Below are positions 3,800 to 60,313 of a stretch of 64,000 bases of DNA, piece after piece. Both the position numbers and the translations under genes were made by a program. Positions within the stretch are counted from its first letter, which is position 1. Every line of letters starts with the position of its first letter. Source of the stretch: Pseudomonadota bacterium (GTDB lineage: Bacteria; Bdellovibrionota; UBA1018; CAIMNF01); assembly GCA_027488515.1 (NCBI GenBank), contig JAIYBN010000001.1, forward strand, positions 192,811-256,810. The letters are read 5' to 3'. Under the pieces are notes generated by a model. That model had not been told where the DNA came from. It did no database searches and saw only the letters and a program-made list of their open reading frames with translations.

Positions 3800-5839
3800 T
3801 TGATACCATGCGTCACCGCGTGTATGAAGTCGCTTCTGAACTGGCTTTCCCGCATTCCCAAGACCCGAAAACCCTGGCAAGAACTGCTTCTTCCCGGGCT
3901 GCTGTCCGTCGTGATTGCGGCAACCGCATCCACCTCTCCTCTCTCGTTTCTTGAAGCCCCTCTTTACGATCTCCGGCTCTGGCTCTCCAAGAAGCATTCG
4001 GTGGATCCCGGAATCGCCATCATCACCCTCGATGACCAGACCCTGAATCAACTGAACGAGACCTCTCCCCTCACCGTCTCCTCCCATTTGAAAGCGATTC
4101 AGGCGCTGGAATCGCACGGTGTCCGGGCGGTCGGATATGCCGTCGATTTCACCCGCGTTCAACGGATCGACGCCCTGAGTTTCGAAACCGATGCGGTCAA
4201 GGAACTCTACCGGTCGATGGTCCGGATGAATGCCAAAGGTACACCCGTGGTCCTCGGCATTCCCTATGACACGACCGGAGAAGTGCTGGCTCCCTATCCC
4301 CTGAGCCAGCTCCCGCAAGCCATGGCGATGGTCCACCGCGACGGGACCGTGTTCGGTAAAGACAAAGTCACCCGCCGTGCCCTGCTCTCCCTGTATCAAA
4401 AACCTGCGTTTGAACTGGCTCTCGCCAACCTCATCGTACCGGAACAGTCTTTTCAAGAACCGCCCGGAAGCTATGCGGCCGCGGAGACGGAAGCACGCTA
4501 CTTCCTTCTCGGACTCCATCAGTCAGCCGGGAGGATCTACGAGCCGGAATACGAATCCTTCTCCTACCCCAGGTATTCTTTCGTGGACCTGGTGGAAGGG
4601 AAGATCCCGCAGGGAACCCTCCGCGACAAAATCATCCTGGTGGGCGTCTTCCACCGGGACAACCCGAACGACTACACCCTGGTGAGCGCCCCCGGGGGAG
4701 GCACCGCGGTTCCGAAGATCCTGGTGCAAGCGAACATTCTGGACTCGATTTTGAACGGGCACGGCATCCGGGAAACTCCCCACGCCGTGGTCGCCCTGAT
4801 TTCGTTCCTGCTCTCACTCCTGGTGATCCTCGCTTCCTCACGCTTCCGTCCCAGCAGGCTGATTCTCCTGACTTTCGCCCTGATCGCAGTGACTTTCACC
4901 GGTTCACTGATCCTCCTGCAGCCGCTCCCCTGGATCGGAAACGTCTGGCTTCCGCTCGGAGCCCCGTACCTGGCGATGGCCATCAGCTTCTATCTCATGA
5001 TTCCGGTCCGGCTTTACATGGAGAATCGCAAGCGGTTCGAGCTGGAAAAACAGAACCGGGCACTCCTGCAAGTCGAGGAGATGAAAACCAACTTCCTCCA
5101 ATTGGTGACCCATGACTTGAAAACCCCCGTGGCCAAGATCCAGGGCCTCACCGAGCAACTGAAGCGCTCGCTCAGCGGGCGTCTCGAGTCCCGTGACATC
5201 GAAACGATGAATCATTTGTTCTCGGCGAACGAGGAGTTGAACCACTTCATCAATTCCCTTCTCGAGCTGACCCAGATCGACAGCCAGGGGATCCGAGTGA
5301 ACCTCCAATCCCGCGATCTCAACCAACTCCTCGAACAGGTGGTCCTGAAACACCGTTTCGGCGCCCAAGCGAAACAGATCGAGGTCAGACTCGATTTCGA
5401 GCCGCTGTTTCCGATCCGGGTCGATGCGACCCTCATCTCGAAAGTTCTCTCGAACCTGCTCGACAATGCGATCAAGTATTCACCCGAGAAGACCTCGGTC
5501 ACGCTGACCACACGGGAATCCGGCGACCACGTCGAGATCACGATCGAGGACCAGGGAATCGGGATTCCCGAGGCCGAGATCGGAAATCTCTTCAGCCGGT
5601 TCTACCGGATCAACAACGACACGACCCGGAGTGTGAAGGGCACGGGGCTCGGGCTCTACCTTTCTCGTTACTTCATTGAAGCCCATCACGGCGAGATCTC
5701 CGTGGACAGCCGTCCCGGAAAAGGAACCCGGTTCCTGATCCGCCTTCCGATGGAACTCACCCAGGCCGAAGTGGTTCGTCCCGGCCTACCCCTCGACGGA
5801 ATCCAGAAAAGAAAAAACAAGGAGATGAAAAATGCGTAA
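3800..5839 (+). CDS. Sensor histidine kinase with a periplasmic CHASE2 domain.
   Basis: N-terminal TM plus a large extracytoplasmic domain and three closely spaced TM helices (CHASE2 architecture). H-box HDLKTP. HATPase_c G-boxes GTGLGLYLSRYFIEAHHGEISVDSRPGKGTRF. Confidence 0.8.
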   Translation: MIPCVTACMKSLLNWLSRIPKTRKPWQELLLPGLLSVVIAATASTSPLSFLEAPLYDLRLWLSKKHSVDPGIAIITLDDQTLNQLNETSPLTVSSHLKAIQALESHGVRAVGYAVDFTRVQRIDALSFETDAVKELYRSMVRMNAKGTPVVLGIPYDTTGEVLAPYPLSQLPQAMAMVHRDGTVFGKDKVTRRALLSLYQKPAFELALANLIVPEQSFQEPPGSYAAAETEARYFLLGLHQSAGRIYEPEYESFSYPRYSFVDLVEGKIPQGTLRDKIILVGVFHRDNPNDYTLVSAPGGGTAVPKILVQANILDSILNGHGIRETPHAVVALISFLLSLLVILASSRFRPSRLILLTFALIAVTFTGSLILLQPLPWIGNVWLPLGAPYLAMAISFYLMIPVRLYMENRKRFELEKQNRALLQVEEMKTNFLQLVTHDLKTPVAKIQGLTEQLKRSLSGRLESRDIETMNHLFSANEELNHFINSLLELTQIDSQGIRVNLQSRDLNQLLEQVVLKHRFGAQAKQIEVRLDFEPLFPIRVDATLISKVLSNLLDNAIKYSPEKTSVTLTTRESGDHVEITIEDQGIGIPEAEIGNLFSRFYRINNDTTRSVKGTGLGLYLSRYFIEAHHGEISVDSRPGKGTRFLIRLPMELTQAEVVRPGLPLDGIQKRKNKEMKNA

Positions 5840-7259
5840 GATCCTGGTGGTTGATGACGATGCAGGCCTCCGCAGCACAGTGACCTCTGCCCTCACAGAG
5901 GGGATGTATCTGGTGGATCAGGCCGCCGACGGTGACGAGGCGGTCACCCGGGTCCGGGCCGGTGAATACGACATGGTCCTCATGGACGTGAACATGCCGA
6001 AAATGTCCGGTATCGAGGCACTGAAGGAGATCAAAGCCCACGATCCCTCAATCATGGTCATCATCCTCACCGCTTTTTCGAACATCCGGGATGCGGTGGA
6101 GGCGACCCGCCTCGGCGCCTACAATTATCTCGAGAAACCCGTACGATCCGACAACCTCGTTTACATGATCGACCAGGCTTTCCGCAGTCAGAACATGGTG
6201 AAGAAGCTCTCTTACTCCGCACCGGTGTTCAACCTTCCGAGCGGGAACGAATTCGTCGGGCAGAGCAACGAGATGAAGAAGATCTTCAGCGTCATCGACC
6301 GGCTCGCACGTGTGGAGACCGCGGTTCTGATCCGGGGCGAGAGCGGTACCGGCAAGGAATTGGTCGCCCAGTCCCTGCATTACAACGGCCCGAGAAAAGA
6401 CAACCGCTTTGTCGCCGTGAACTGTTCGGCCATTCCGGAAACCCTGATGGAGAGCGAGTTCTTCGGTCACGAGAAAGGCGCGTTTACCGGTGCCGACACC
6501 CGGAAGATCGGCAAATTCCAGTATGCCGAGGGCGGAACCCTGTTCCTGGACGAAATCGGCGAGATCCCTCCCTCCATGCAGGTGAAGCTCCTGCGCGTGT
6601 TGCAGGAAAAGAAGTTCACCCCCGTCGGCTCCAACCGTGAAATCGAAATGAATGTCCGGATCGTGGCCGCAACCAATCGTGATCTGGAATCCATGATCGA
6701 GTCGGGCTCGTTCCGTGAAGACCTCTTCTACCGCCTGAATGTGCTTCCGATCCAACTCCCGCCACTCCGGGACCGGAAGAACGACATCGAATCCCTGGCC
6801 CGGTATTTTGTCGAAAAATTCAACCAGCGCTATGCCAAAGAGGTTCGTGGACTCACGCCCGAAGCCCTTGCAGCACTCCGGGTCCACCGCTGGCCGGGGA
6901 ACATCCGGGAGCTCGAGAACGTGCTCGAACACGCTTTCGTCCTGGAATCCGGCGAATGGATCACTTTGGACTCACTCCCCGAAAAGATCCGGAGGTCGGC
7001 GCCCGCCGAGGCGGTTGCCGAGATCGGTCTCGAGGAAGGCGCCGTTCCCATGGAAGGCGAAGCCATGAGTTTCCGGATGAGCATCCAGAAATTCGATTTC
7101 CAGGCGAGCAAAGAGGAGTTCGAGAAGCAGTTCCTCATCAACGCTCTCCGTGCATTCCGGGGCAAGATCAACCAGACCGCCCTCCATGCGAACATCCCGA
7201 AGAAGACCCTTCTCAGGAAACTCGAGAAATACGGAATCACCGCCAAGGATTACAACTGA
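5832..7259 (+). CDS. Sigma54-dependent two-component response regulator (NtrC family).
   Basis: REC domain (MRKILVVDDD...DVNMP), AAA+ sigma54-interaction domain (GESGTGKELVAQSLH, GAFTGA, ESEFFGHEKGAFTGA) and a C-terminal Fis-type HTH. Start overlaps the kinase stop. Confidence 0.9.
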   Translation: MRKILVVDDDAGLRSTVTSALTEGMYLVDQAADGDEAVTRVRAGEYDMVLMDVNMPKMSGIEALKEIKAHDPSIMVIILTAFSNIRDAVEATRLGAYNYLEKPVRSDNLVYMIDQAFRSQNMVKKLSYSAPVFNLPSGNEFVGQSNEMKKIFSVIDRLARVETAVLIRGESGTGKELVAQSLHYNGPRKDNRFVAVNCSAIPETLMESEFFGHEKGAFTGADTRKIGKFQYAEGGTLFLDEIGEIPPSMQVKLLRVLQEKKFTPVGSNREIEMNVRIVAATNRDLESMIESGSFREDLFYRLNVLPIQLPPLRDRKNDIESLARYFVEKFNQRYAKEVRGLTPEALAALRVHRWPGNIRELENVLEHAFVLESGEWITLDSLPEKIRRSAPAEAVAEIGLEEGAVPMEGEAMSFRMSIQKFDFQASKEEFEKQFLINALRAFRGKINQTALHANIPKKTLLRKLEKYGITAKDYN

Positions 7260-32949: not shown

Positions 32950-34677
32950 TCACTGTTCCGCGGTCATCGAGACCGCTTCATCGACCGAGGTCCTGCCCTC
33001 GACCGCTTTCTTGAGTGCCGAAACCCTCAGCGTTTGCAGTCCGTATTGCTCGACGGCGGTCCGCTTGATCTCGATCGCTGTCCTGCCGGCCAGGGTCATC
33101 TCCTTGAGCTCGGAGAAATATTCGAGAACTTCATAGATGGCCACCCGTCCCTTGTACCCGGTGTTGTTGCACTCTTTGCAACCCTTCGGGCCGTAGAAAT
33201 TGGCGTTCGCCGCGAATTTGTTGATCCCCAGGGACTCCATTTTGTCGGCCGGAACCTTGACCGGTTGCTTGCAGTGCTGACAAAGGGTCCGGAGCAGTCG
33301 CTGGGCCACAATGGTGTTCACGGATGCGGTCACCAGGAAGGGCTCGATGCCCATGTTCACCATCCGGGTGATGGTCGAAACGGTGTCGTTCGTGTGAAGG
33401 GTGGATAAAACCAAGTGACCGGTCAGAGCCGCCTGAACCGCAACTTCACCCGTTTCGAAGTCCCGGATCTCCCCCACCAGAACGGTATCCGGATCCTGGC
33501 GGAGCAGGGCTCTCAAAACCGCGGCGAAGGTCAATCCGACATCCTTGTTCACTTGAACCTGGTTGATGCCCTCGAGGTTGTATTCCACAGGGTCTTCCAC
33601 GGTCGAAAGATTGTCAGAAACCTGGTTCAACTCCATGAGGGCCGAATAAAGGGTGGTGGTTTTCCCGCTACCGGTCGGACCCGTGACGAGCACCATTCCG
33701 TTCGGTTGGGCGATCCCCTTGCGGAAGATCTCCAATTGGCGGTCCTCGAATCCGAGCGTCCTGAGATCGAGTTGCAGGTTGCCCTTGGAGAGAATACGCA
33801 AAACCACCTTCTCACCGAAAAGGGTCGGGAGGGTGTTCACCCGGAAGTCGACTTCCTTGTTCCCGAGCTTGATCTTGATCCGTCCGTCCTGAGGCACACG
33901 GGATTCCGCGATGTCCATCCGGCCCATGATCTTGAAGCGCGCGACCACCGCACGTTTCATCTCCATCGGAATGTGTGTGACATCGATGAGCGCTCCGTCC
34001 ACCCGGATCCGGACACGGAAATCCCGCTCATAGGGTTCGACATGGATGTCCGAAGCCCCACGGCGGATGGCCTCGGTGAGTACGCTGTTCACCACAGAAA
34101 TGACCGGAGCATCATCCCCGGTGGCATTGTTCACATCGTGAACCTGGAATTGCTCGATCTGCTGGATCTGGACTTGTTCTTCCTTGCCACCCTTCGGGCC
34201 TTGGGCGTCCTTCTTGAATTGTTCGAGTGCCCGCCCGAGGTTCTGCGTTCCGGAATAATACTTCAGAAAAGCGGCGTCGAAAGCGGTGAACGTGGTCAAC
34301 ACCGCCTCGACATTCATTTTGGTCGCGAAACGGATGTCATCGAGAAATGCGATCTGTGTCGGATCAGGAACTGCCACAACGAGGATCCCCCGACTCATTT
34401 GAATCGGAATCGCTTGTGCCTTACGGGAGAGGTCCGCACTGATGGTGGCGACCACCTCGGGCTTCACCTCGAACTTGGCAAGATTGATGCTCTGGAGGGA
34501 GAACTTCTGGTTCAGGAACAGGAGCAGCTTCTGTTCCGAGAGAACTTTCTTCTCGATGAACTGACGGATGGCATCACCGTTGCTCTTGAAGATGGCCTCG
34601 GCATCCTGGTACTGGGATTGTGTGAGGAGCTTGTCCTTGTAAAGGAGCTCGACGAGTTTCCTGGACATCCCCTCCAT
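32950..34677 (-). CDS. pilB: Type IV pilus extension ATPase PilB (GspE family).
   Basis: N-terminal GspE_N domain, Walker A GPTGSGKTT, and the tetracysteine motif CQHC...CKEC. Confidence 0.92.
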   Translation of the reverse strand: MEGMSRKLVELLYKDKLLTQSQYQDAEAIFKSNGDAIRQFIEKKVLSEQKLLLFLNQKFSLQSINLAKFEVKPEVVATISADLSRKAQAIPIQMSRGILVVAVPDPTQIAFLDDIRFATKMNVEAVLTTFTAFDAAFLKYYSGTQNLGRALEQFKKDAQGPKGGKEEQVQIQQIEQFQVHDVNNATGDDAPVISVVNSVLTEAIRRGASDIHVEPYERDFRVRIRVDGALIDVTHIPMEMKRAVVARFKIMGRMDIAESRVPQDGRIKIKLGNKEVDFRVNTLPTLFGEKVVLRILSKGNLQLDLRTLGFEDRQLEIFRKGIAQPNGMVLVTGPTGSGKTTTLYSALMELNQVSDNLSTVEDPVEYNLEGINQVQVNKDVGLTFAAVLRALLRQDPDTVLVGEIRDFETGEVAVQAALTGHLVLSTLHTNDTVSTITRMVNMGIEPFLVTASVNTIVAQRLLRTLCQHCKQPVKVPADKMESLGINKFAANANFYGPKGCKECNNTGYKGRVAIYEVLEYFSELKEMTLAGRTAIEIKRTAVEQYGLQTLRVSALKKAVEGRTSVDEAVSMTAEQ

Positions 34678-38923: not shown

Positions 38924-39409
38924 TCAGTTACGTGTTCCGTTGATGGTGATGCTCCCGAGGCATCCGTAACCATAGGAGGAGACCGGATTGAGCACTCCTT
39001 GGATGGCGTTCCCGGACACCATCAGAACACCTTGATAAGTACAATTCGTGGGAGTGGCGCCGTACATGCCACCACCGTATCCGTACATACCTCCACCCGC
39101 CTGACCATAGGCACTGGTGGCGGCGCTGACTGGCACGAGAGAGAGGGTCACATTCATTTGCCCGTTCGCAGCCCGGGTTCCGGACAAGGTCTGGTTGAAA
39201 CACGGGTTCGAGCCCGAGCCACTGATCTGACTGCTCGATTCATTCACAGACAGACGAATGGTCGAACACTGGGCGCTCGAGAACTGGGCACCACTTTGGG
39301 TCAAGGTGTAGACATTCGTGCCCTGCATTCCGCAGCCGATCCCCGAGAGCAGGGTCAGGAACATCCAGGGTCTCAGGGATTTCAGCATTTCGAACTTCAT
39401 CTTCATCAT
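38924..39409 (-). CDS. Small secreted Gly/Tyr/Ser-rich lipoprotein.
   Basis: Start at MMKMKFEMLKSLRPWMFLTLLSGIGCG (lipobox LSGIGC). Low-complexity GYG/GGGMYG repeats. Confidence 0.4.
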   Translation of the reverse strand: MMKMKFEMLKSLRPWMFLTLLSGIGCGMQGTNVYTLTQSGAQFSSAQCSTIRLSVNESSSQISGSGSNPCFNQTLSGTRAANGQMNVTLSLVPVSAATSAYGQAGGGMYGYGGGMYGATPTNCTYQGVLMVSGNAIQGVLNPVSSYGYGCLGSITINGTRN

Positions 39410-52094: not shown

Positions 52095-54059
<1,965 letters not shown>

Positions 54060-54066
54060 ACCCGGC

Positions 54067-55308
54067 ATGAAGGCCTCGATCCTCACCATCGGCGATGAAC
54101 TCCTGATCGGACAGGTCCTGAACTCGAATGTTCAATGGATCAGTGAGCGTCTGACCGCCATCGGCGTCACGGTCACGCGGCACCTGAGTGTCGGTGACGA
54201 GATGGACGAGATCACGGGCGCCCTCCGGTTTTTACAAAGCTCCTGCGATATCTTGATCATCGGAGGGGGCTTGGGCCCCACCCACGATGACCTCACTGTC
54301 GAGGCATTGTCGCGGTACTTCAAAATCCCGCTCCGGTACGACGAAGAATGGGTCGGCAAGATCGAGGAATTTTTCAAATCGCGTGGTCGCCCGATGACCG
54401 AGAACAACAAGAAACAAGGCTACCTGCTCCGGGACGCTGTGCGGATCGACAATGACTGTGGAACCGCTCCGGGGCAATTCTTGATGGAAGGTCGGACCCG
54501 GATCTTCGTGGTACCCGGCGTGCCTCACGAAATGAAGAGCATGATGGATCGGGTGATCCTTCCCAAGCTTTTGAATGACCCCTCGCTCGGCTCGACGCGG
54601 ATCCTGAAAGAAACCCTCCTCACTTCCGGCGTCGGTGAGAGCGCACTCGCCCAGAGGATCGAAATGGATGTGGAGCGGATCCGGAACATCGAGGGAATGA
54701 GTCTCGCCTTCCTCCCTTCGAACACCGGAGTCCGGCTCCGGCTCCAAATGCGGGCCTCCACCCCCGAGGAAGAGGCCACGTTCCGAAGTGAATTCACGGC
54801 TCTCGAGAAAGCTTGCGGGTCCGATGCCTACGGTATCGAACCGGGCACGATCGAGGAGTGCGTTCATCGATTGTTGATGGATCGCGGGGAGACGCTTGCC
54901 ATTGCAGAGAGCTGCACGGGTGGACTCGTTTCACAACGGCTCACCCGGATCGCAGGAGCCTCGAAGATCTTGCGAGGCACACTGATTCCGTATCAGACCG
55001 AACTGAAGACCCGGGAACTCGGAATCCCGGCCACCCTTTTCGAACAGTCGGGAGTGGTGTCCGAGGCGAGTGCGAGAGCCATGGCCGAGAACATCCGCAC
55101 CAAATGGGGAACCACTTGGGGACTTGGAATCACCGGCTACCTGGGCCCGGAAGGGGACGCCTTCGCGCCGGGCGGGACCGTCTGGATTGCGGTGGCCCGG
55201 GAAAACCGGACCCTGGCCCGTGAGTTCCACTTCGAAAATCACCGGGAGCGGGCGCAGGAACGGGCGGCCGCTTATGCCCTTGACTCACTCCGTCGAGCCT
55301 TGACCTGA
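54067..55308 (+). CDS. cinA: CinA-family competence/damage-inducible protein (MoCF-binding domain plus CinA C-terminal domain).
   Basis: MKASILTIGDELLIGQVLNSN and CinA_C region ESCTGGLVSQRL. Confidence 0.85.
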   Translation: MKASILTIGDELLIGQVLNSNVQWISERLTAIGVTVTRHLSVGDEMDEITGALRFLQSSCDILIIGGGLGPTHDDLTVEALSRYFKIPLRYDEEWVGKIEEFFKSRGRPMTENNKKQGYLLRDAVRIDNDCGTAPGQFLMEGRTRIFVVPGVPHEMKSMMDRVILPKLLNDPSLGSTRILKETLLTSGVGESALAQRIEMDVERIRNIEGMSLAFLPSNTGVRLRLQMRASTPEEEATFRSEFTALEKACGSDAYGIEPGTIEECVHRLLMDRGETLAIAESCTGGLVSQRLTRIAGASKILRGTLIPYQTELKTRELGIPATLFEQSGVVSEASARAMAENIRTKWGTTWGLGITGYLGPEGDAFAPGGTVWIAVARENRTLAREFHFENHRERAQERAAAYALDSLRRALT

Positions 55309-55429
55309 CCCCACCCCGGTGCCAATCCGCACTGGAGAATTTCGGGGTCAAAGGGTCACCAGTGGGCCCACCCCCGGGTAGGAACCCTTTGAGTCATTGA
55401 AATCATTGACTAATCTTTTGATACGATTT

Positions 55430-55445
55430 TGGCACGTGCCTTGCT
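55430..55445 (+). promoter_or_regulatory. Sigma54 (RpoN) -24/-12 promoter.
   Basis: TGGCACGTGCCTTGCT matches TGGCACG-N4-TTGCW exactly. It lies 54 nt upstream of the lipoprotein ATG, which has a strong G-rich SD. A TCATTGA-AA-TCATTGA direct repeat sits 20 to 35 nt upstream. Confidence 0.7.
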
Positions 55446-55498
55446 ATTTGCCTGACTGACGTGAACCACACGATGCCGACACAAGGGGGGGCATCTCT

Positions 55499-56263
55499 AT
55501 GAAAACGATCTCTCAATTACTCTGCAATGCCGGACTCCTCATCTTGACCCTGTTCTCTCTGACCGCCTGCGAAACGGTGATTGTTCAAGGAGGCGGGGGA
55601 GTCTATGTCGACCCTTATCGCCGGGCTTGGTACGACGTTTATGGAAACCAATGCACCTCCTATGGATACCCGATGGCGGGTTGCAACTTCTACGCAGACG
55701 GGTCGAAGATCACGGCCAATCAAGATCCGTACGCTTCCACTCGCTCCATTTATTTCGATTATTGGACCTACACGGACTCTTACGGATTCCGCAGGGACTA
55801 CATGGGTTACGCGTGGCTGAGCAGTACCGGCATTCTCTATGACTCATTCGGAAACGCATTGAACGAAATGGACGACGGCTCTTCGCAATCCGCGGACATC
55901 ATCGCTGCCGCGGCCGAACAGGAAGAGGCCAGCTCCCGGGCAGCCGGACGCACCCTTTCCCAAAAATACGCACTGGCTGAATCGGCCGGAGTGAGCATTG
56001 CAAAAACCCTCCAGGACTGGGCGGTGCTCGGACGTGACCGCGCCAGAACCCAGGCCGATGTCGAAGACTTCAGCAAGCGCCTGTATGGCGTGAATCTGTC
56101 TCGAGCCACCCTCGCAGTGAAGGAAGCCGCAAAAGGCAACCGTCAAGCCCTCACCGAGGTCAACATCGATGTCGCGGCTCACTGGGGCACGAATCCTGAA
56201 ACCTCAAAGCAAATCTTGAGCGAATGGTACCGCGAGGAGCTTGCCCGACTCGGAGCGAAGTGA
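55499..56263 (+). CDS. Lipoprotein of unknown function (sigma54-dependent, monocistronic).
   Basis: Lipobox LFSLTACE. Gly/Tyr/Asp-rich N-terminal half. Flanked by a sigma54 promoter and a strong terminator. Confidence 0.6.
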   Translation: MKTISQLLCNAGLLILTLFSLTACETVIVQGGGGVYVDPYRRAWYDVYGNQCTSYGYPMAGCNFYADGSKITANQDPYASTRSIYFDYWTYTDSYGFRRDYMGYAWLSSTGILYDSFGNALNEMDDGSSQSADIIAAAAEQEEASSRAAGRTLSQKYALAESAGVSIAKTLQDWAVLGRDRARTQADVEDFSKRLYGVNLSRATLAVKEAAKGNRQALTEVNIDVAAHWGTNPETSKQILSEWYREELARLGAK

Positions 56264-56288
56264 ACCTTTTGACAGCTCAAACCATTGG

Positions 56289-56326
56289 CACCTGAAACAC
56301 CTTGTGTTTCAGGTGCTTTTTTTTTA
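56289..56326 (+). terminator. Rho-independent terminator.
   Basis: CACCTGAAACAC-CTT-GTGTTTCAGGTG perfect 12-bp stem followed by T9. Confidence 0.85.
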
Positions 56327-56347
56327 CCGAGCCTTTAACCTTGTAGC

Positions 56348-56959
56348 ATGGATCAAGCAAAGGAGTTCCTCCTCCAGTACCAGGGGATTCAGGCCTATCT
56401 GGTATTTTATTTCACACTGATCGGATGTGGAATCGGCATGCCGATCAACTCCGATCTCACCTTGATTGCCGCCTCGGTGCTCGCTGCACTCGGTTTCTTC
56501 AAACTGCCGATCCTGATTCCGGTCGCCTTCCTCGGTCTCCTGAGCGGAGACACGATCAATTATCTCGTCGCGCGCAAGTACGGGCCGAGAATCCTGAAGA
56601 AGGCTCCCTTCAAGTGGATCCTCACGCCAGGCAAGGTCGCCGCTGCCGAACGTTATCTCGAAAAACGGGGAACCCGGTTCCTGTTTCTGGTCCGGTTCCT
56701 TCCCTTGATCCGGACGGCACTGTACTTCACCGCGGGCTCCTTGCAAGTTCGCGCCCGGACCTTTTTCCTTCTGGATGCGATTTCGACCGTGATCTACCTG
56801 CTCGGGCTCATGAATCTCGCCCATACCGCCGGTGCGAACATCGACTCCCTGATTGAGGGCTTCAAACGCTTCCAGTTCGGCTTGCTCGGATTCCTGCTCA
56901 CCGGATCCCTTTTCATCCTCTACCGGAATCGCCGGACAAAAAGGACTCTCGCCTCATGA
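56348..56959 (+). CDS. DedA-family (VTT/SNARE-associated domain) membrane protein.
   Basis: DedA signature region LVARKYGPRILKKAP...FLFLVRFLPLIRTALYFTAGS. About 200 aa with 4 to 5 TM helices. Confidence 0.8.
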   Translation: MDQAKEFLLQYQGIQAYLVFYFTLIGCGIGMPINSDLTLIAASVLAALGFFKLPILIPVAFLGLLSGDTINYLVARKYGPRILKKAPFKWILTPGKVAAAERYLEKRGTRFLFLVRFLPLIRTALYFTAGSLQVRARTFFLLDAISTVIYLLGLMNLAHTAGANIDSLIEGFKRFQFGLLGFLLTGSLFILYRNRRTKRTLAS

Positions 56960-59316
56960 ACCGTCTCCTGCTCTGGGTCTCGGCCCTCCCCTTGGTCCTC
57001 ATCGCGGCCTTCTTCCAGATCACACTCGATCTGGGGGAGCGCGGAGAACTGGAATCCAAATTCCTTCGGGGAACCATCTATCCGATCGCACGATCGGTGA
57101 CGGGAGCGCTGACCAACATCAAGTTCCGCTTGCGCGGACCCGAGTCCGGCAACCAGAAGATCGTGATTCTTGCGGCGGATGAGGAATCAATCGTTGCACA
57201 TGGCCGCTGGCCCTGGCATCGGGAGGTCTACGCCAAGATCATCGACCGGCTCCTCGCAATGGGAGTCAAGACCATCGGATTCGACATGGTGCTCTCGGAG
57301 CCTGAGGAGCGGATCCACCAAAAGGCCTACAAGCTCGTCGAAAAACACAACCCCTCCCTCTTGAAGGATTTCCTCGAACTTGAGAGCGATCCGCAACTGG
57401 CTCAAGCGATCGCTCGAGCAAAAGATAAACTGGTATTGGGCTACGCCTACGACGGGGCCTGCCAGCCCAGGTATGAGAAAGATGAATCTTGTCCACTCTC
57501 CGCAGCTGGAACCTCGGCGAAGATCCGGAATAGCATCGGAAAGTTCGCCATCGAGCAACCCTATCCCTTTCCCAAAGAAACCCTTTGGGGGACCTCGCTC
57601 AGGAACCTGTATCACTTAATCCCGAATATCGATCTCTTCAGTGACAATGCCCGTTATGCCGGGATCTTCAACGCGGATCTTGACCCGGACGGTTACATCC
57701 GGCGCTACGGATTGTTCTCCTTTTCCGAAAACCTCATCCTTCCTTCACTTGCAGTGAAGATGGCGGAGCTCGCCCGGGATGATCAGATCCAAATCGAATT
57801 CCGTCCGGACGGTCTCATCAAGAAAGCCTATTTCAAGAAGGACCCCGCAAATCCGATTCCGGTGACCCCGCTCGGGTACATGGATATCAACTTCAAAGGG
57901 CCGAACCATTACCAGCTCGAGAAAGAGATTCCGGGATACGAACCGTACTACTACATTCCGGTCCATCATTTGCTGGACAAAAAACTCACCCCCATCGATG
58001 AAGCAGAGCTCCAAGAAATCCTCTTTGACTCACATGTGCTGTTCGGTGCGACGGCTCTCGGGGTTTATGACATGAGGGCCTTCCCCTTCGATTCGAACAC
58101 CCCCGGGGTCGAAGGTCACGCGACAGCCCTCGACAACCTGATTGCCGGCAACCAACTCCGCTCGGCCAGCGCCATCCACATGAGCTGGTTGCCTTTGACC
58201 TTGATCGTGGTCTTCGGCCTGGTTTTCATCTTTCTGTTTTCGAGCCTGGACGCCATCCCGAGCATCCTCGTCTTCATCGGATTCTTGAGCGTCTTGGGTT
58301 GGATCGACATCCGCATCTTGTTCAAGAATCACATCAACCTGTCGACTGCTTTCCTCCTGATCGAGACCTTTCTCATTTTCGTCACCCTGCTCTCGATCCG
58401 GTACATCTTGGAGGAAAAGAAGAAGAAATTTGTGAAAGAGGCGTTCTCCAAATACCTCGCCCCGCAAGTCGTGGAACTGGTCCTCGAGGATCCGAGCAAG
58501 CTCCAGGTCGGCGGTGAGCGGAAGGAAGTCACCATCCTGTTCAGCGATCTCCGTGGCTTCACGAACTTTTCGGAGAACATGGACCCGAAGGTGCTCACCC
58601 AGTTCCTGAACGAGTACCTCTCCGAAATGACCGAGATCATCTTCCAACACGAGGGGACCCTCGACAAGTACATCGGGGACGCGATCATGGCCTTCTGGGG
58701 CGCACCCATCGACCAGAAGGATCATGTGGAGCGTGCGTGGCGGGCCGCCGTGGCCATGAAAAAGCGTCTCGACGAGATCGCACCGGACTTCAAAAAACGT
58801 TACGGGATCGACGTCAGTGCCGGGATCGGCATCAACTCGGGACTGGTCAGCGTCGGAAACATGGGCTCCAAGAGGATTTTCGAGTACACCGTGATCGGAG
58901 ATCACGTGAACCTCGCATCCCGACTGGAAAGCCTGACCCGATTGTACGGTGGAGACATTCTGAGTACCGAGGTGACCCGGGAGAGGCTCCCGGAAGGGGT
59001 CCAGGGACAATTCCACACCCGGATTCTCGACTCGGTGATCGTAAAGGGGAAGACCAAGGCGGTCGATCTGATCCAGATCTCCGAAGTGGAGTTCGACCCC
59101 GAGCTGATCCGCAACTTCACCGAGGCCCGCGAAGCATTCAAACACCGGGAATGGGAAGTGGCCCGGACCAAGTTCACGCTCGCCAGTGAAATCCAGAAAG
59201 CCCGCACCGGTTCGGTTGATCCGGTCTCCGAGATCTACCTCTCGCGTTGCGTGGAGTTCGAGAAAAATCCCCCTCCGCCCGACTGGGATGGAACGATAGA
59301 AATGCGCAGGAAATGA
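56956..59316 (+). CDS. CHASE2-domain membrane-bound class III adenylate/guanylate cyclase.
   Basis: N-terminal TM and periplasmic CHASE2-like domain, three TM helices, then a cyclase homology domain (EVTILFSDLRGFT; YIGDAIMAFWGAP; VGNMGSKRIFEYTVIGDHVNLASRLES). Confidence 0.85.
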   Translation: MNRLLLWVSALPLVLIAAFFQITLDLGERGELESKFLRGTIYPIARSVTGALTNIKFRLRGPESGNQKIVILAADEESIVAHGRWPWHREVYAKIIDRLLAMGVKTIGFDMVLSEPEERIHQKAYKLVEKHNPSLLKDFLELESDPQLAQAIARAKDKLVLGYAYDGACQPRYEKDESCPLSAAGTSAKIRNSIGKFAIEQPYPFPKETLWGTSLRNLYHLIPNIDLFSDNARYAGIFNADLDPDGYIRRYGLFSFSENLILPSLAVKMAELARDDQIQIEFRPDGLIKKAYFKKDPANPIPVTPLGYMDINFKGPNHYQLEKEIPGYEPYYYIPVHHLLDKKLTPIDEAELQEILFDSHVLFGATALGVYDMRAFPFDSNTPGVEGHATALDNLIAGNQLRSASAIHMSWLPLTLIVVFGLVFIFLFSSLDAIPSILVFIGFLSVLGWIDIRILFKNHINLSTAFLLIETFLIFVTLLSIRYILEEKKKKFVKEAFSKYLAPQVVELVLEDPSKLQVGGERKEVTILFSDLRGFTNFSENMDPKVLTQFLNEYLSEMTEIIFQHEGTLDKYIGDAIMAFWGAPIDQKDHVERAWRAAVAMKKRLDEIAPDFKKRYGIDVSAGIGINSGLVSVGNMGSKRIFEYTVIGDHVNLASRLESLTRLYGGDILSTEVTRERLPEGVQGQFHTRILDSVIVKGKTKAVDLIQISEVEFDPELIRNFTEAREAFKHREWEVARTKFTLASEIQKARTGSVDPVSEIYLSRCVEFEKNPPPPDWDGTIEMRRK

Positions 59317-59317
59317 T

Positions 59318-60313
59318 ATGAGCGCCAAAGAAGTCAACCTGAAACAGAAAGACATCCTTTTCGAGGAGGGCGACCCCTCGAAAAACCTCTACTTTGTCAA
59401 AAAAGGGGCGATCCGGCTCTTCCGCAGGAAGGGGGACGGGAAGATCGAGATCGACACCGTCCGCGCAGGCTCCGTATTGGGTGAGTTGGCGTTTTTCGAC
59501 GGCCAACCCCGCTCGGCTTCGGCGGAGGCCTTGCTTCCGACCGACCTGATCGAGATCTCCAAAGGGTCTCTCGACGATGCGCTTTCCAAGATCCCCGAGT
59601 GGCTGGTGACTTTGATCAAGACCATCAGTTCGCGCCTGAGGGCCGCGAACAACAAGGTCCGGATTCTGGAGAGCCTTTCGACCGAGTACGAAGTGGACAA
59701 GCACGGGAACCGTTCGAAGGAGTACTGCTTCGTGACCACTCCCGAATTGCTGAAGTTCTCGACCGCGCTGCTCACAGTGGCCTCCCGCTACGGCAAGAAC
59801 GAGAAGCCGGACGGAATCGAGTTCACCTCCGCCATGCTCGAGCGCTTCGCGACCCAGATCCTCCAGGTTCCCTCGGCCAAAGTGTTGAGCCTGATCGAGC
59901 TCATGAAGACGGTCAAGATCCTGAAAGACGATCTCATGCTCACCGACATCCGGTTCCTCGACCAGTTCATCCAATTCGTGAATGAACAGAACCTGACGGC
60001 CCACGAGAAGAGACAAACCCTTTCGGAATCCGGATTCAAGATCCTGGGCCTCATGGTCCAGAACAGGGCTCAAGCCAAGCCTCTCGCCGACTCGGTCGAA
60101 CGTCTCAACATCGGACCCGCCATTCAACAGGCCAAGATCCCCGTGGGACAGATCCAGGAGTTGCAGGACCAGGGCTTCATCAAGAACATCACGCTTGTCT
60201 CGGCGAACGAGGTACTGCTCGACTACGAGGGAAGTAACCTGCTGTTCCTGTACCGCGTGTACTGGGTTCTGACCGAGATCGACCGCCTCAACGAGGAGAA
60301 GCGGAAGAAATGA
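59318..60313 (+). CDS. Cyclic-nucleotide-binding domain protein with a C-terminal domain of unknown function.
   Basis: N-terminal cNMP-binding cassette (ILFEEGDPSKNLYFVKKGAIRL...GSVLGELAFFDGQPRSASAEAL). About 200 aa C-terminal region without a recognisable HTH. Start 2 nt after the cyclase stop. Confidence 0.75.
   Translation: MSAKEVNLKQKDILFEEGDPSKNLYFVKKGAIRLFRRKGDGKIEIDTVRAGSVLGELAFFDGQPRSASAEALLPTDLIEISKGSLDDALSKIPEWLVTLIKTISSRLRAANNKVRILESLSTEYEVDKHGNRSKEYCFVTTPELLKFSTALLTVASRYGKNEKPDGIEFTSAMLERFATQILQVPSAKVLSLIELMKTVKILKDDLMLTDIRFLDQFIQFVNEQNLTAHEKRQTLSESGFKILGLMVQNRAQAKPLADSVERLNIGPAIQQAKIPVGQIQELQDQGFIKNITLVSANEVLLDYEGSNLLFLYRVYWVLTEIDRLNEEKRKK

Follow-up and report, generated by a model that had tools for sequence, protein, structure and literature searches.

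Among the best described sigma-54-dependent systems are the promoters of Klebsiella nifH (activated by NifA), Pseudomonas putida Pu (XylR), and E. coli pspA (PspF) and glnAp2 (NtrC), which represent the classical combination of sigma-54 RNA polymerase, a bacterial enhancer-binding protein (bEBP) and integration host factor (IHF). As a general theme, sigma-54 has been proposed to be the 'central controller of the bacterial exterior', lipoproteins included (Francke et al. 2011, PMC3162934), and in Borrelia burgdorferi the Rrp2-RpoN-RpoS pathway is reported to control surface lipoproteins (PMC3037356). Literature searches returned no description of a sigma-54 regulon in Bdellovibrio or related bacteria, including uncultured Bdellovibrionota. 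Here we analyzed 64,000 nucleotides of a Bdellovibrionota genome (contig JAIYBN010000001.1, positions 192,811 to 256,810; hereafter the window), in which the element TGGCACGTGCCTTGCT precedes a gene encoding a lipoprotein of 254 amino acids (Table 1). We estimate a probability of roughly 80% that this element functions as a sigma-54 promoter and drives the lipoprotein gene as a monocistronic unit, a reading that agrees with an earlier, sequence-only reading of the same DNA and that is based on the composition of the element and on its conservation at related loci.

Table 1. Coordinates and characteristics of the features discussed in the text; negative positions are relative to the predicted transcription start.
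Feature	Position	Strand	Characteristics
Lipoprotein gene, 254 aa	55499-56263	+	N-terminus MKTISQLLCNAGLLILTLFSLTAC; lipobox L-T-A-C, Cys24
Predicted sigma-54 core promoter TGGCACGTGCCTTGCT	55430-55445	+	GG 55431-55432 (-25/-24), GC 55443-55444 (-13/-12)
Conserved block GGTGCCAAtCCGCACtgG-N8-TCGGGGyCAAAGGGTCACC	55317-55362	+	about -139 to -94; candidate enhancer (upstream activating sequence)
Direct repeat TCATTGA-AA-TCATTGA	55394-55400 and 55403-55409	+	-62 to -47
Conserved box TTGAAATCATTGA	55397-55409	+	from alignment of the window with L001-L003
TATCAAAAGATTA, perfect match to E. coli IHF consensus WATCARNNNNTTR	55411-55423	-	-45 to -33
Predicted 5' untranslated region, 43 nt	55456-55498	+	from predicted start at about 55456
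Intrinsic terminator	hairpin 56288-56316, T9 56317-56325	+	stem GCACCTGAAACAC / GTGTTTCAGGTGC, 3-nt loop
NtrC/AtoC-like bEBP	5832-7259	+	REC, AAA+, HTH_8; GAFTGA; Pfam Sigma54_activat E = 5e-73
REC-less bEBP, 316 aa	29666-30616	-	AAA+ core and lid only; GSFTGA; Pfam Sigma54_activat E = 3e-74
Second sigma-54-type promoter TGGCATCGTCTTTGCT	39447-39432	-	intergenic, between an amidohydrolase gene and lysA
Third loose match TGGCATCACCGTTGCT	34569-34584	+	antisense, first 110 nt of pilB

The core element matches the consensus TGGCACG-N4-TTGCW at all 12 specified positions, as the sequence-only reading had observed, and its GG and GC are exactly 10 nt apart. When both strands of the window were searched with TGGCACGNNNNTTGCW, this site was the only match without mismatches, compared with none in 100 dinucleotide-preserving shuffles. 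No site with one mismatch to the consensus was found in the window, and the ten sites with two mismatches are within the number expected by chance; two of them, at 34476 and 34569, were rejected as lying antisense inside pilB. The element is on the same strand as the lipoprotein gene and ends 53 nt upstream of its ATG, and a search of the + strand near the gene for a sigma-70-like promoter found none. Taking C55444 as -12 and applying the usual spacing from -12 to +1, transcription is predicted to begin at about 55456, the same position that had been proposed before.

Comparative evidence across homologous loci makes the promoter nearly certain. We compared 60 loci, 24 from species-representative genomes and 36 from metagenomes, 57 of which had enough upstream sequence for analysis (representing 55 distinct sequences). 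The strict pattern TGGCA[CT]-N5-[CT]TGC[AT], on the coding strand and within 300 nt upstream of the homologue, was present in 27 of these 57 loci (26 of the 55 unique sequences); the other 650,142 strand-positions in these loci contained a single match. A looser score (at least 10 of 12 positions, with GG and GC fixed) recovered the element in about 39 of the 57, compared with 2.8% of control windows, a figure that includes the promoters themselves. The -24/-12 element is kept in non-syntenic loci (L011-L013, L016-L024, L034, L037, L040, L041 and L043), and many of the promoter-bearing loci have none of the acs/cinA/dedA-type neighbors that surround the gene in the window. When the upstream sequences were aligned on TGG without gaps, information was concentrated in TT-TGGCAY-N5-YTGCW. 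Two metagenome-assembled genomes (MAGs) each contain two lipoprotein paralogs in different contexts, L007 and L012 in CANBTI01, and L008 and L014 in CALPVV02. A sigma-54-type element precedes both paralogs in CANBTI01, while in CALPVV02 it is missing from L014, and the upstream region of L008 is cut by the end of the contig.

Just upstream of the core lies the direct repeat TCATTGA-AA-TCATTGA, which the sequence-only reading had placed at 55392-55407, 2 nt from its actual position, and had interpreted as a possible repressor or IHF-like site. The repeat does exist, but its two copies differ in conservation: the first is variable even among the closest relatives (ACATTGA, CCCCTGA, GCTTTGA), whereas the second is maintained as part of the box TTGAAATCAYTGA, whose register with the -24 element is fixed. 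The direct repeat is therefore partly fortuitous, the actual unit being the box. In 13 loci, extending down to about 56% protein identity, AATCAYT starts 28-29 nt before the T of TGG. AAATCATT was found in 10 of 38 family promoters compared with 10 of 1042 control windows. The heptamer TCATTGA by itself, repeats of which had been put forward as a guide to a regulon, is not over-represented in the window (14 found, 10.9 expected). On the minus strand the box reads TCAATGATTT and contains the TCAA-N4-TT core of the IHF consensus, and the adjacent perfect match to that consensus is the only exact one on either strand of the window. These two elements fill an A+T-rich stretch from -62 to -33, between the core and a conserved block further upstream, and an IHF site at sigma-54 promoters usually lies between -30 and -80. 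Matches to the IHF consensus at 8 or more of 9 positions, no more than 70 nt upstream of -24, occurred in 23 of 35 family promoters, compared with 5.4 +/- 2.1 (maximum 11) in shuffled sequences, an approximately fourfold enrichment. The most economical reading of -62 to -33, and one that we lean towards slightly, is that it serves as an IHF-type DNA-bending site. The consensus match and the enrichment support an IHF-like site better than a repressor operator, the other function suggested previously.

A different explanation for these observations, which we consider unlikely although it has several points in its favor, is that the sigma-54 promoter is real and the TTGAAATCATTGA box is bound by a sequence-specific regulator, not IHF, that could gate the promoter as a repressor or as a co-activator. 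The conservation and positioning of the box are stricter than an architectural site needs, and its fit to the E. coli IHF consensus is imperfect, at only 6-8 of 9 positions. In addition, TCATTGA is a near-palindrome (TCA-N-TGA), the box at L025 contains a 10-bp inverted repeat, AATCACTCAG-CT-CTGAGTGATT, and a related TTCATTGATGTC box is located about 105 nt upstream of the promoter in two members (L061 and L064) of a second sigma-54 promoter family described below. However, a consistent second half-site is absent across loci, both the orientation of the box and its location, with the core on one side and the upstream block on the other, suit a bending site, and IHF-like matches are enriched as a class.

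Further upstream, a footprint alignment of the window with its three closest relatives (L001-L003, 89-96% protein identity) revealed, in order, a conserved block at about -139 to -94, approximately 30 nt of freely varying sequence, the box, and a semi-conserved A+T-rich run that extends to the core. Of these relatives, L001, on contig JAIXWV010000020.1, encodes a protein 96% identical to that of the window. The block, which lies at a typical position for an enhancer and was absent from the sequence-only reading, contains GGTGC...GCAC and GGGTCA-AA-GGGTCA-like elements. Similar elements were enriched upstream of promoters of the family as a whole, with GCACCA/TGGTGC in 15 of 38 promoters (53 of 1042 control windows), TGCACCA in 8 of 38 (7 of 1042) and TTTCGCAC in 6 of 38 (1 of 1042), and the same k-mer comparison showed that GGTGCCAA was also enriched. 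These results point to the block as a candidate enhancer for an activator, a role to which we give about an even chance. Two candidates for a more exact site were discarded: GCACC...GGTGC as an enhancer dyad, as the spacing of its halves differs between loci, and inverted repeats within 55290-55460, such as TCAAAGGGT / ACCCTTTGA (55348-55356 and 55384-55392), which are not conserved in L001-L003.

It is improbable that the activator binds instead at the box (-62 to -47), as a promoter-proximal enhancer, with the upstream block being retained for some other reason, such as the 3' end of cinA, the preceding gene, or the termination of that gene. The box is indeed the most widely conserved element outside the core, and the block can be aligned among close relatives only. 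However, many loci show an independent enrichment of GCACC-type elements further upstream, and a bEBP hexamer at about -55 would have too little distance from the closed complex for looping unless the DNA were severely bent. To our knowledge, described enhancers lie more than about 80 nt upstream.

The remaining features of the transcription unit are consistent with a gene that is expressed on its own from the sigma-54 promoter. The predicted leader is nearly invariant among the window and L001-L003, and the strong Shine-Dalgarno sequence that had been noted is a run of seven G residues at 55484-55490. An RNA element in the leader was considered and rejected: an Rfam search returned no match, and the predicted fold was not significant (z = -1.2). 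A short TGCC...GGCA pairing is present around the G-rich Shine-Dalgarno run, and recurs in L004 and L010. Downstream of the gene, the hairpin and T9 run reported earlier are both present, with a G+C-containing stem of 13 Watson-Crick pairs, rather than the 12 bp originally counted, and one G-U pair (folding energy -22.6 kcal/mol, z = -7.4). A hairpin followed by a T-run was located 3' of the gene in 23 of the 25 loci examined, which supports a monocistronic unit, and, together with the -24/-12 element kept across many Bdellovibrionota MAGs, upholds the earlier interpretation of this locus.

The terminator has additional properties of its own. Its stem, TTGGCACCTGAAA...TTTCAGGTG, and the T-run after it (56285-56325) are conserved at the nucleotide level in L001, L003, L004, L006, L007, L009, L010, L026, L031, L032 and L035, though the proteins encoded at these loci are only about 57-96% identical; the loop is variable, and one compensatory change was seen, in L009. 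Conservation of the stem sequence extends over the clade that shares the window's gene order. The stem sequence is thus kept beyond the need of a plain terminator, and may also be a protein-binding palindrome or part of a promoter for dedA, the next gene. Only two copies of TTGGCACC occur in the window, at 55318-55325 (-) and 56285-56292 (+), in inverted orientation and flanking the lipoprotein gene: the first falls within the conserved block of the upstream region, and the second lies in the stem of the terminator. The -24 element itself also reads TTGGCAC. Given this flanking pair and the conserved stem, the terminator palindrome might double as a protein-binding site.

Several observations weigh against a sigma-54 promoter with the architecture outlined above. 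About one third of the homologous loci, including L005, L014, L015, L020, L023 and L036, have no recognizable -24/-12 element, and sigma-54 control is therefore not universal in the family. The loci are phylogenetically related, so that the enrichment statistics overstate their independence. The window contains no open reading frame (ORF) with an RpoN box and no IHF genes; these genes would lie outside it, and their presence in the genome is therefore assumed. Similarly, a search of the 60 loci found no ORF for a GAFTGA-type bEBP at a distance of up to 3-4 kb from the gene. Across the family, the upstream block yielded no consistent dyad of constant spacing, and, in addition to the imperfect fit of the box to the IHF consensus, the perfect IHF match adjacent to it is degraded in L001-L003. 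All of the evidence comes from sequence, and the start site, every binding event, the activator with its signal, and the role of the protein are inferences. Finally, no terminator was recognized between cinA (stop at 55308) and the lipoprotein gene, and read-through from cinA is possible; however, the idea that the sigma-54 match is fortuitous, and that transcription depends on a sigma-70-type promoter or on such read-through, is very hard to reconcile with a perfect consensus for which no occurrence is expected, with its retention in dozens of loci, including some that have no cinA upstream, and with the negative search for a sigma-70-like promoter on the + strand.

The product of the gene conforms to the lipobox pattern [LVI][ASTVI][GAS]C after a signal peptide, and its lipobox cysteine (Cys24), as well as C52 and C62, are invariant in 115 of 115 homologs. 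At E <= 0.001 we found 202 homologs, all of them unnamed or annotated as 'hypothetical', and the few that bear an organism label are from Bdellovibrionales MAGs. The protein had no match in Pfam or NCBIfam, a profile search of the PDB gave a best match of E = 0.4, and two Foldseek searches against the PDB gave a best E of about 1, the second of them using an AlphaFold model built from 115 sequences (mean pLDDT 77, and about 90 in the C-terminal domain). The earlier description of this lipoprotein as one of unknown function holds. The model depicts a Gly-rich tether, a small beta-rich aromatic N-terminal domain that contains C52 and C62, and a six-helix C-terminal domain. From these features we infer that the lipoprotein is located in the envelope and stabilized by a disulfide. 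It is an orphan, so far found in uncultured Bdellovibrio-like bacteria only.

The C-terminal domain (residues ~130-254; 55886-56260) has a wider distribution than the lipoprotein family. A profile search of 1.8 billion representative sequences identified 364 relatives, and the domain (represented by proteins P0199, P0208, P0214, P0224, P0229, P0244 and P0258) occurs alone in lipoproteins of 160-190 amino acids, behind unrelated N-terminal domains, and twice in a protein of 1062 amino acids. A Pfam scan of ten of the more distant relatives gave no match above the cut-off, with one weak sub-threshold match to OmpA, and none of the distant relatives that were looked up had a functional name. The six-helix domain is a separate, widespread module without a Pfam model.

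As the sequence-only reading had reported, the window encodes two bEBPs, one NtrC-like and one without a receiver (REC) domain, which are recognizable by their Pfam domains and by their GAFTGA and GSFTGA motifs. The NtrC/AtoC-like protein, which is adjoined by a gene for a CHASE2 histidine kinase (3800-5839) and scores below every NCBIfam equivalog cut-off, is a candidate activator for the lipoprotein promoter solely on account of its helix-turn-helix. No HTH_8 domain was found by Pfam in the REC-less protein, the C-terminus of which stops before the recognition helix, and, being without a helix-turn-helix, it could therefore not bind an enhancer alone. It also has no receiver or other sensory domain. 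FlgR and CtcC, bEBPs without a DNA-binding domain, are the nearest comparison, and the REC-less protein would additionally lack a regulatory domain. Its gene stands at the end of a pilB-pilT-pilC cluster, with a GTG start codon that overlaps the stop of pilC (GTGA).

Examination of the gene neighborhood revealed the order acs, cinA, lipoprotein gene, dedA (VTT domain), CHASE2 adenylate/guanylate cyclase gene, and a gene for a cyclic nucleotide monophosphate (cNMP)-binding protein of 331 amino acids (52095-60313, + strand), which is conserved in one clade of the lipoprotein family, the clade of the window. A CHASE2 sensor domain is present both in the cyclase of this conserved order and in the histidine kinase at 3800-5839. 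The ATG of dedA (56348) lies 22 nt past the terminator T-run and has no recognizable Shine-Dalgarno sequence, and in relatives a conserved TTAAACT is located 5-12 nt upstream of this codon. Together, these features suggest that the motif is a -10 element and that the dedA mRNA has no leader, or almost none.

The lipoprotein gene may not be the only target of sigma-54 in the window. A scan for further sites, as had been envisaged earlier, yielded no other perfect match, but the looser pattern TGGCAY-N5-YTGCW matched three times, compared with 0.09 expected. One of the two additional matches is intergenic and lies 22 nt upstream of ORF 38924-39409 (- strand), which encodes a Gly/Tyr-rich protein of 161 amino acids with a signal peptide, a possible lipobox (LLSGIGC) and no match in Pfam or NCBIfam. 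Orthologs of this protein with 49-72% identity (L061, L062/L063 and L064) keep the TGGCAY-N5-YTGC element, and share a TTTAGACACC motif about 70 nt upstream of it. Because the orthologs retain the -24/-12 element, sigma-54 would drive at least two genes for small envelope proteins in the window. The other additional match is followed by no gene on the + strand (ribF is on the - strand), and could reflect chance, a sigma-54 site inside a gene, or the start of an antisense transcript.

Whether the two envelope-protein genes belong to one dedicated sigma-54 envelope regulon of these uncultured freshwater Bdellovibrionota, controlled by a single bEBP, seems doubtful to us. TCATTGA-type boxes are present in both promoter families, which counts toward a shared regulon, as do the two flanking copies of TTGGCACC and the conserved terminator stem. 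At about 66-71 nt upstream of -24, TT-N-G-N(1-2)-ACC occurs in each of the four promoters of the second family, and in the first family in a single subclade. As a shared -70 element this motif was rejected: it holds for the subclade, but in that form is missing from the window's own lipoprotein promoter, which counts against common control.

Taken together, the elements could be accommodated by the following mechanism, which would amount to on/off control of a single envelope lipoprotein gene. RNA polymerase containing sigma-54 would occupy the -24 GG and -12 GC as a closed complex that is unable to open by itself. An AAA+ enhancer-binding protein, encoded elsewhere in the genome, may bind the upstream block through its GGTGC/GCAC-type half-sites, and bending of the A+T-rich region from -62 to -33 (the TTGAAATCATTGA box and the perfect IHF consensus) by IHF or a related protein would bring this activator to the polymerase. 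ATP hydrolysis would then open the promoter, resulting in a predicted transcript of approximately 870 nt, from the 43-nt leader to the terminator. The product would be exported, lipidated at Cys24, and presumably act in the envelope.

This analysis provides a well-supported and directly testable sigma-54 target in uncultured Bdellovibrionota, which can anchor the definition of a regulon, and involves no new mechanism. In addition, it singles out a family of about 200 orphan lipoproteins, together with the wider family that has the same helical domain at the C-terminus, as tightly switched envelope components. Used as a reporter, the conserved promoter could help to find the activating signal.

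In its design, the promoter is an ordinary, classical three-part one, and the mechanism is the textbook one. Like the classical sigma-54 promoters, it has a GG and a GC 10 nt apart in a sequence that fits TGGCACG-N4-TTGCW, an A+T-rich region with the IHF consensus between the core and the presumed enhancer, and a conserved block about 95-140 nt upstream. The GCACC/GGTGC half-sites resemble the NtrC site TGCACC-N5-GGTGCA, but their spacing does not fit that of NtrC, NifA (TGT-N10-ACA) or other named sites. Unlike the classical systems, the activator gene is not nearby, an orphan lipoprotein takes the place of a metabolic or stress operon as the target, and the system is known from its DNA alone. 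Consistent with the proposed role of sigma-54 in the control of the bacterial exterior (PMC3162934), the target is an envelope lipoprotein, and the second promoter in the window also precedes an ORF for a small, secreted, lipoprotein-like product; the word Bdellovibrio does not appear in that study, and the lipoprotein family reported here is not described in it. As in Borrelia, lipoprotein expression would ultimately be under sigma-54. However, in Borrelia (PMC3037356) the gene under the sigma-54 promoter is reported to be rpoS, through which control of the lipoproteins is indirect, whereas here the -24/-12 element is directly upstream of the lipoprotein gene.

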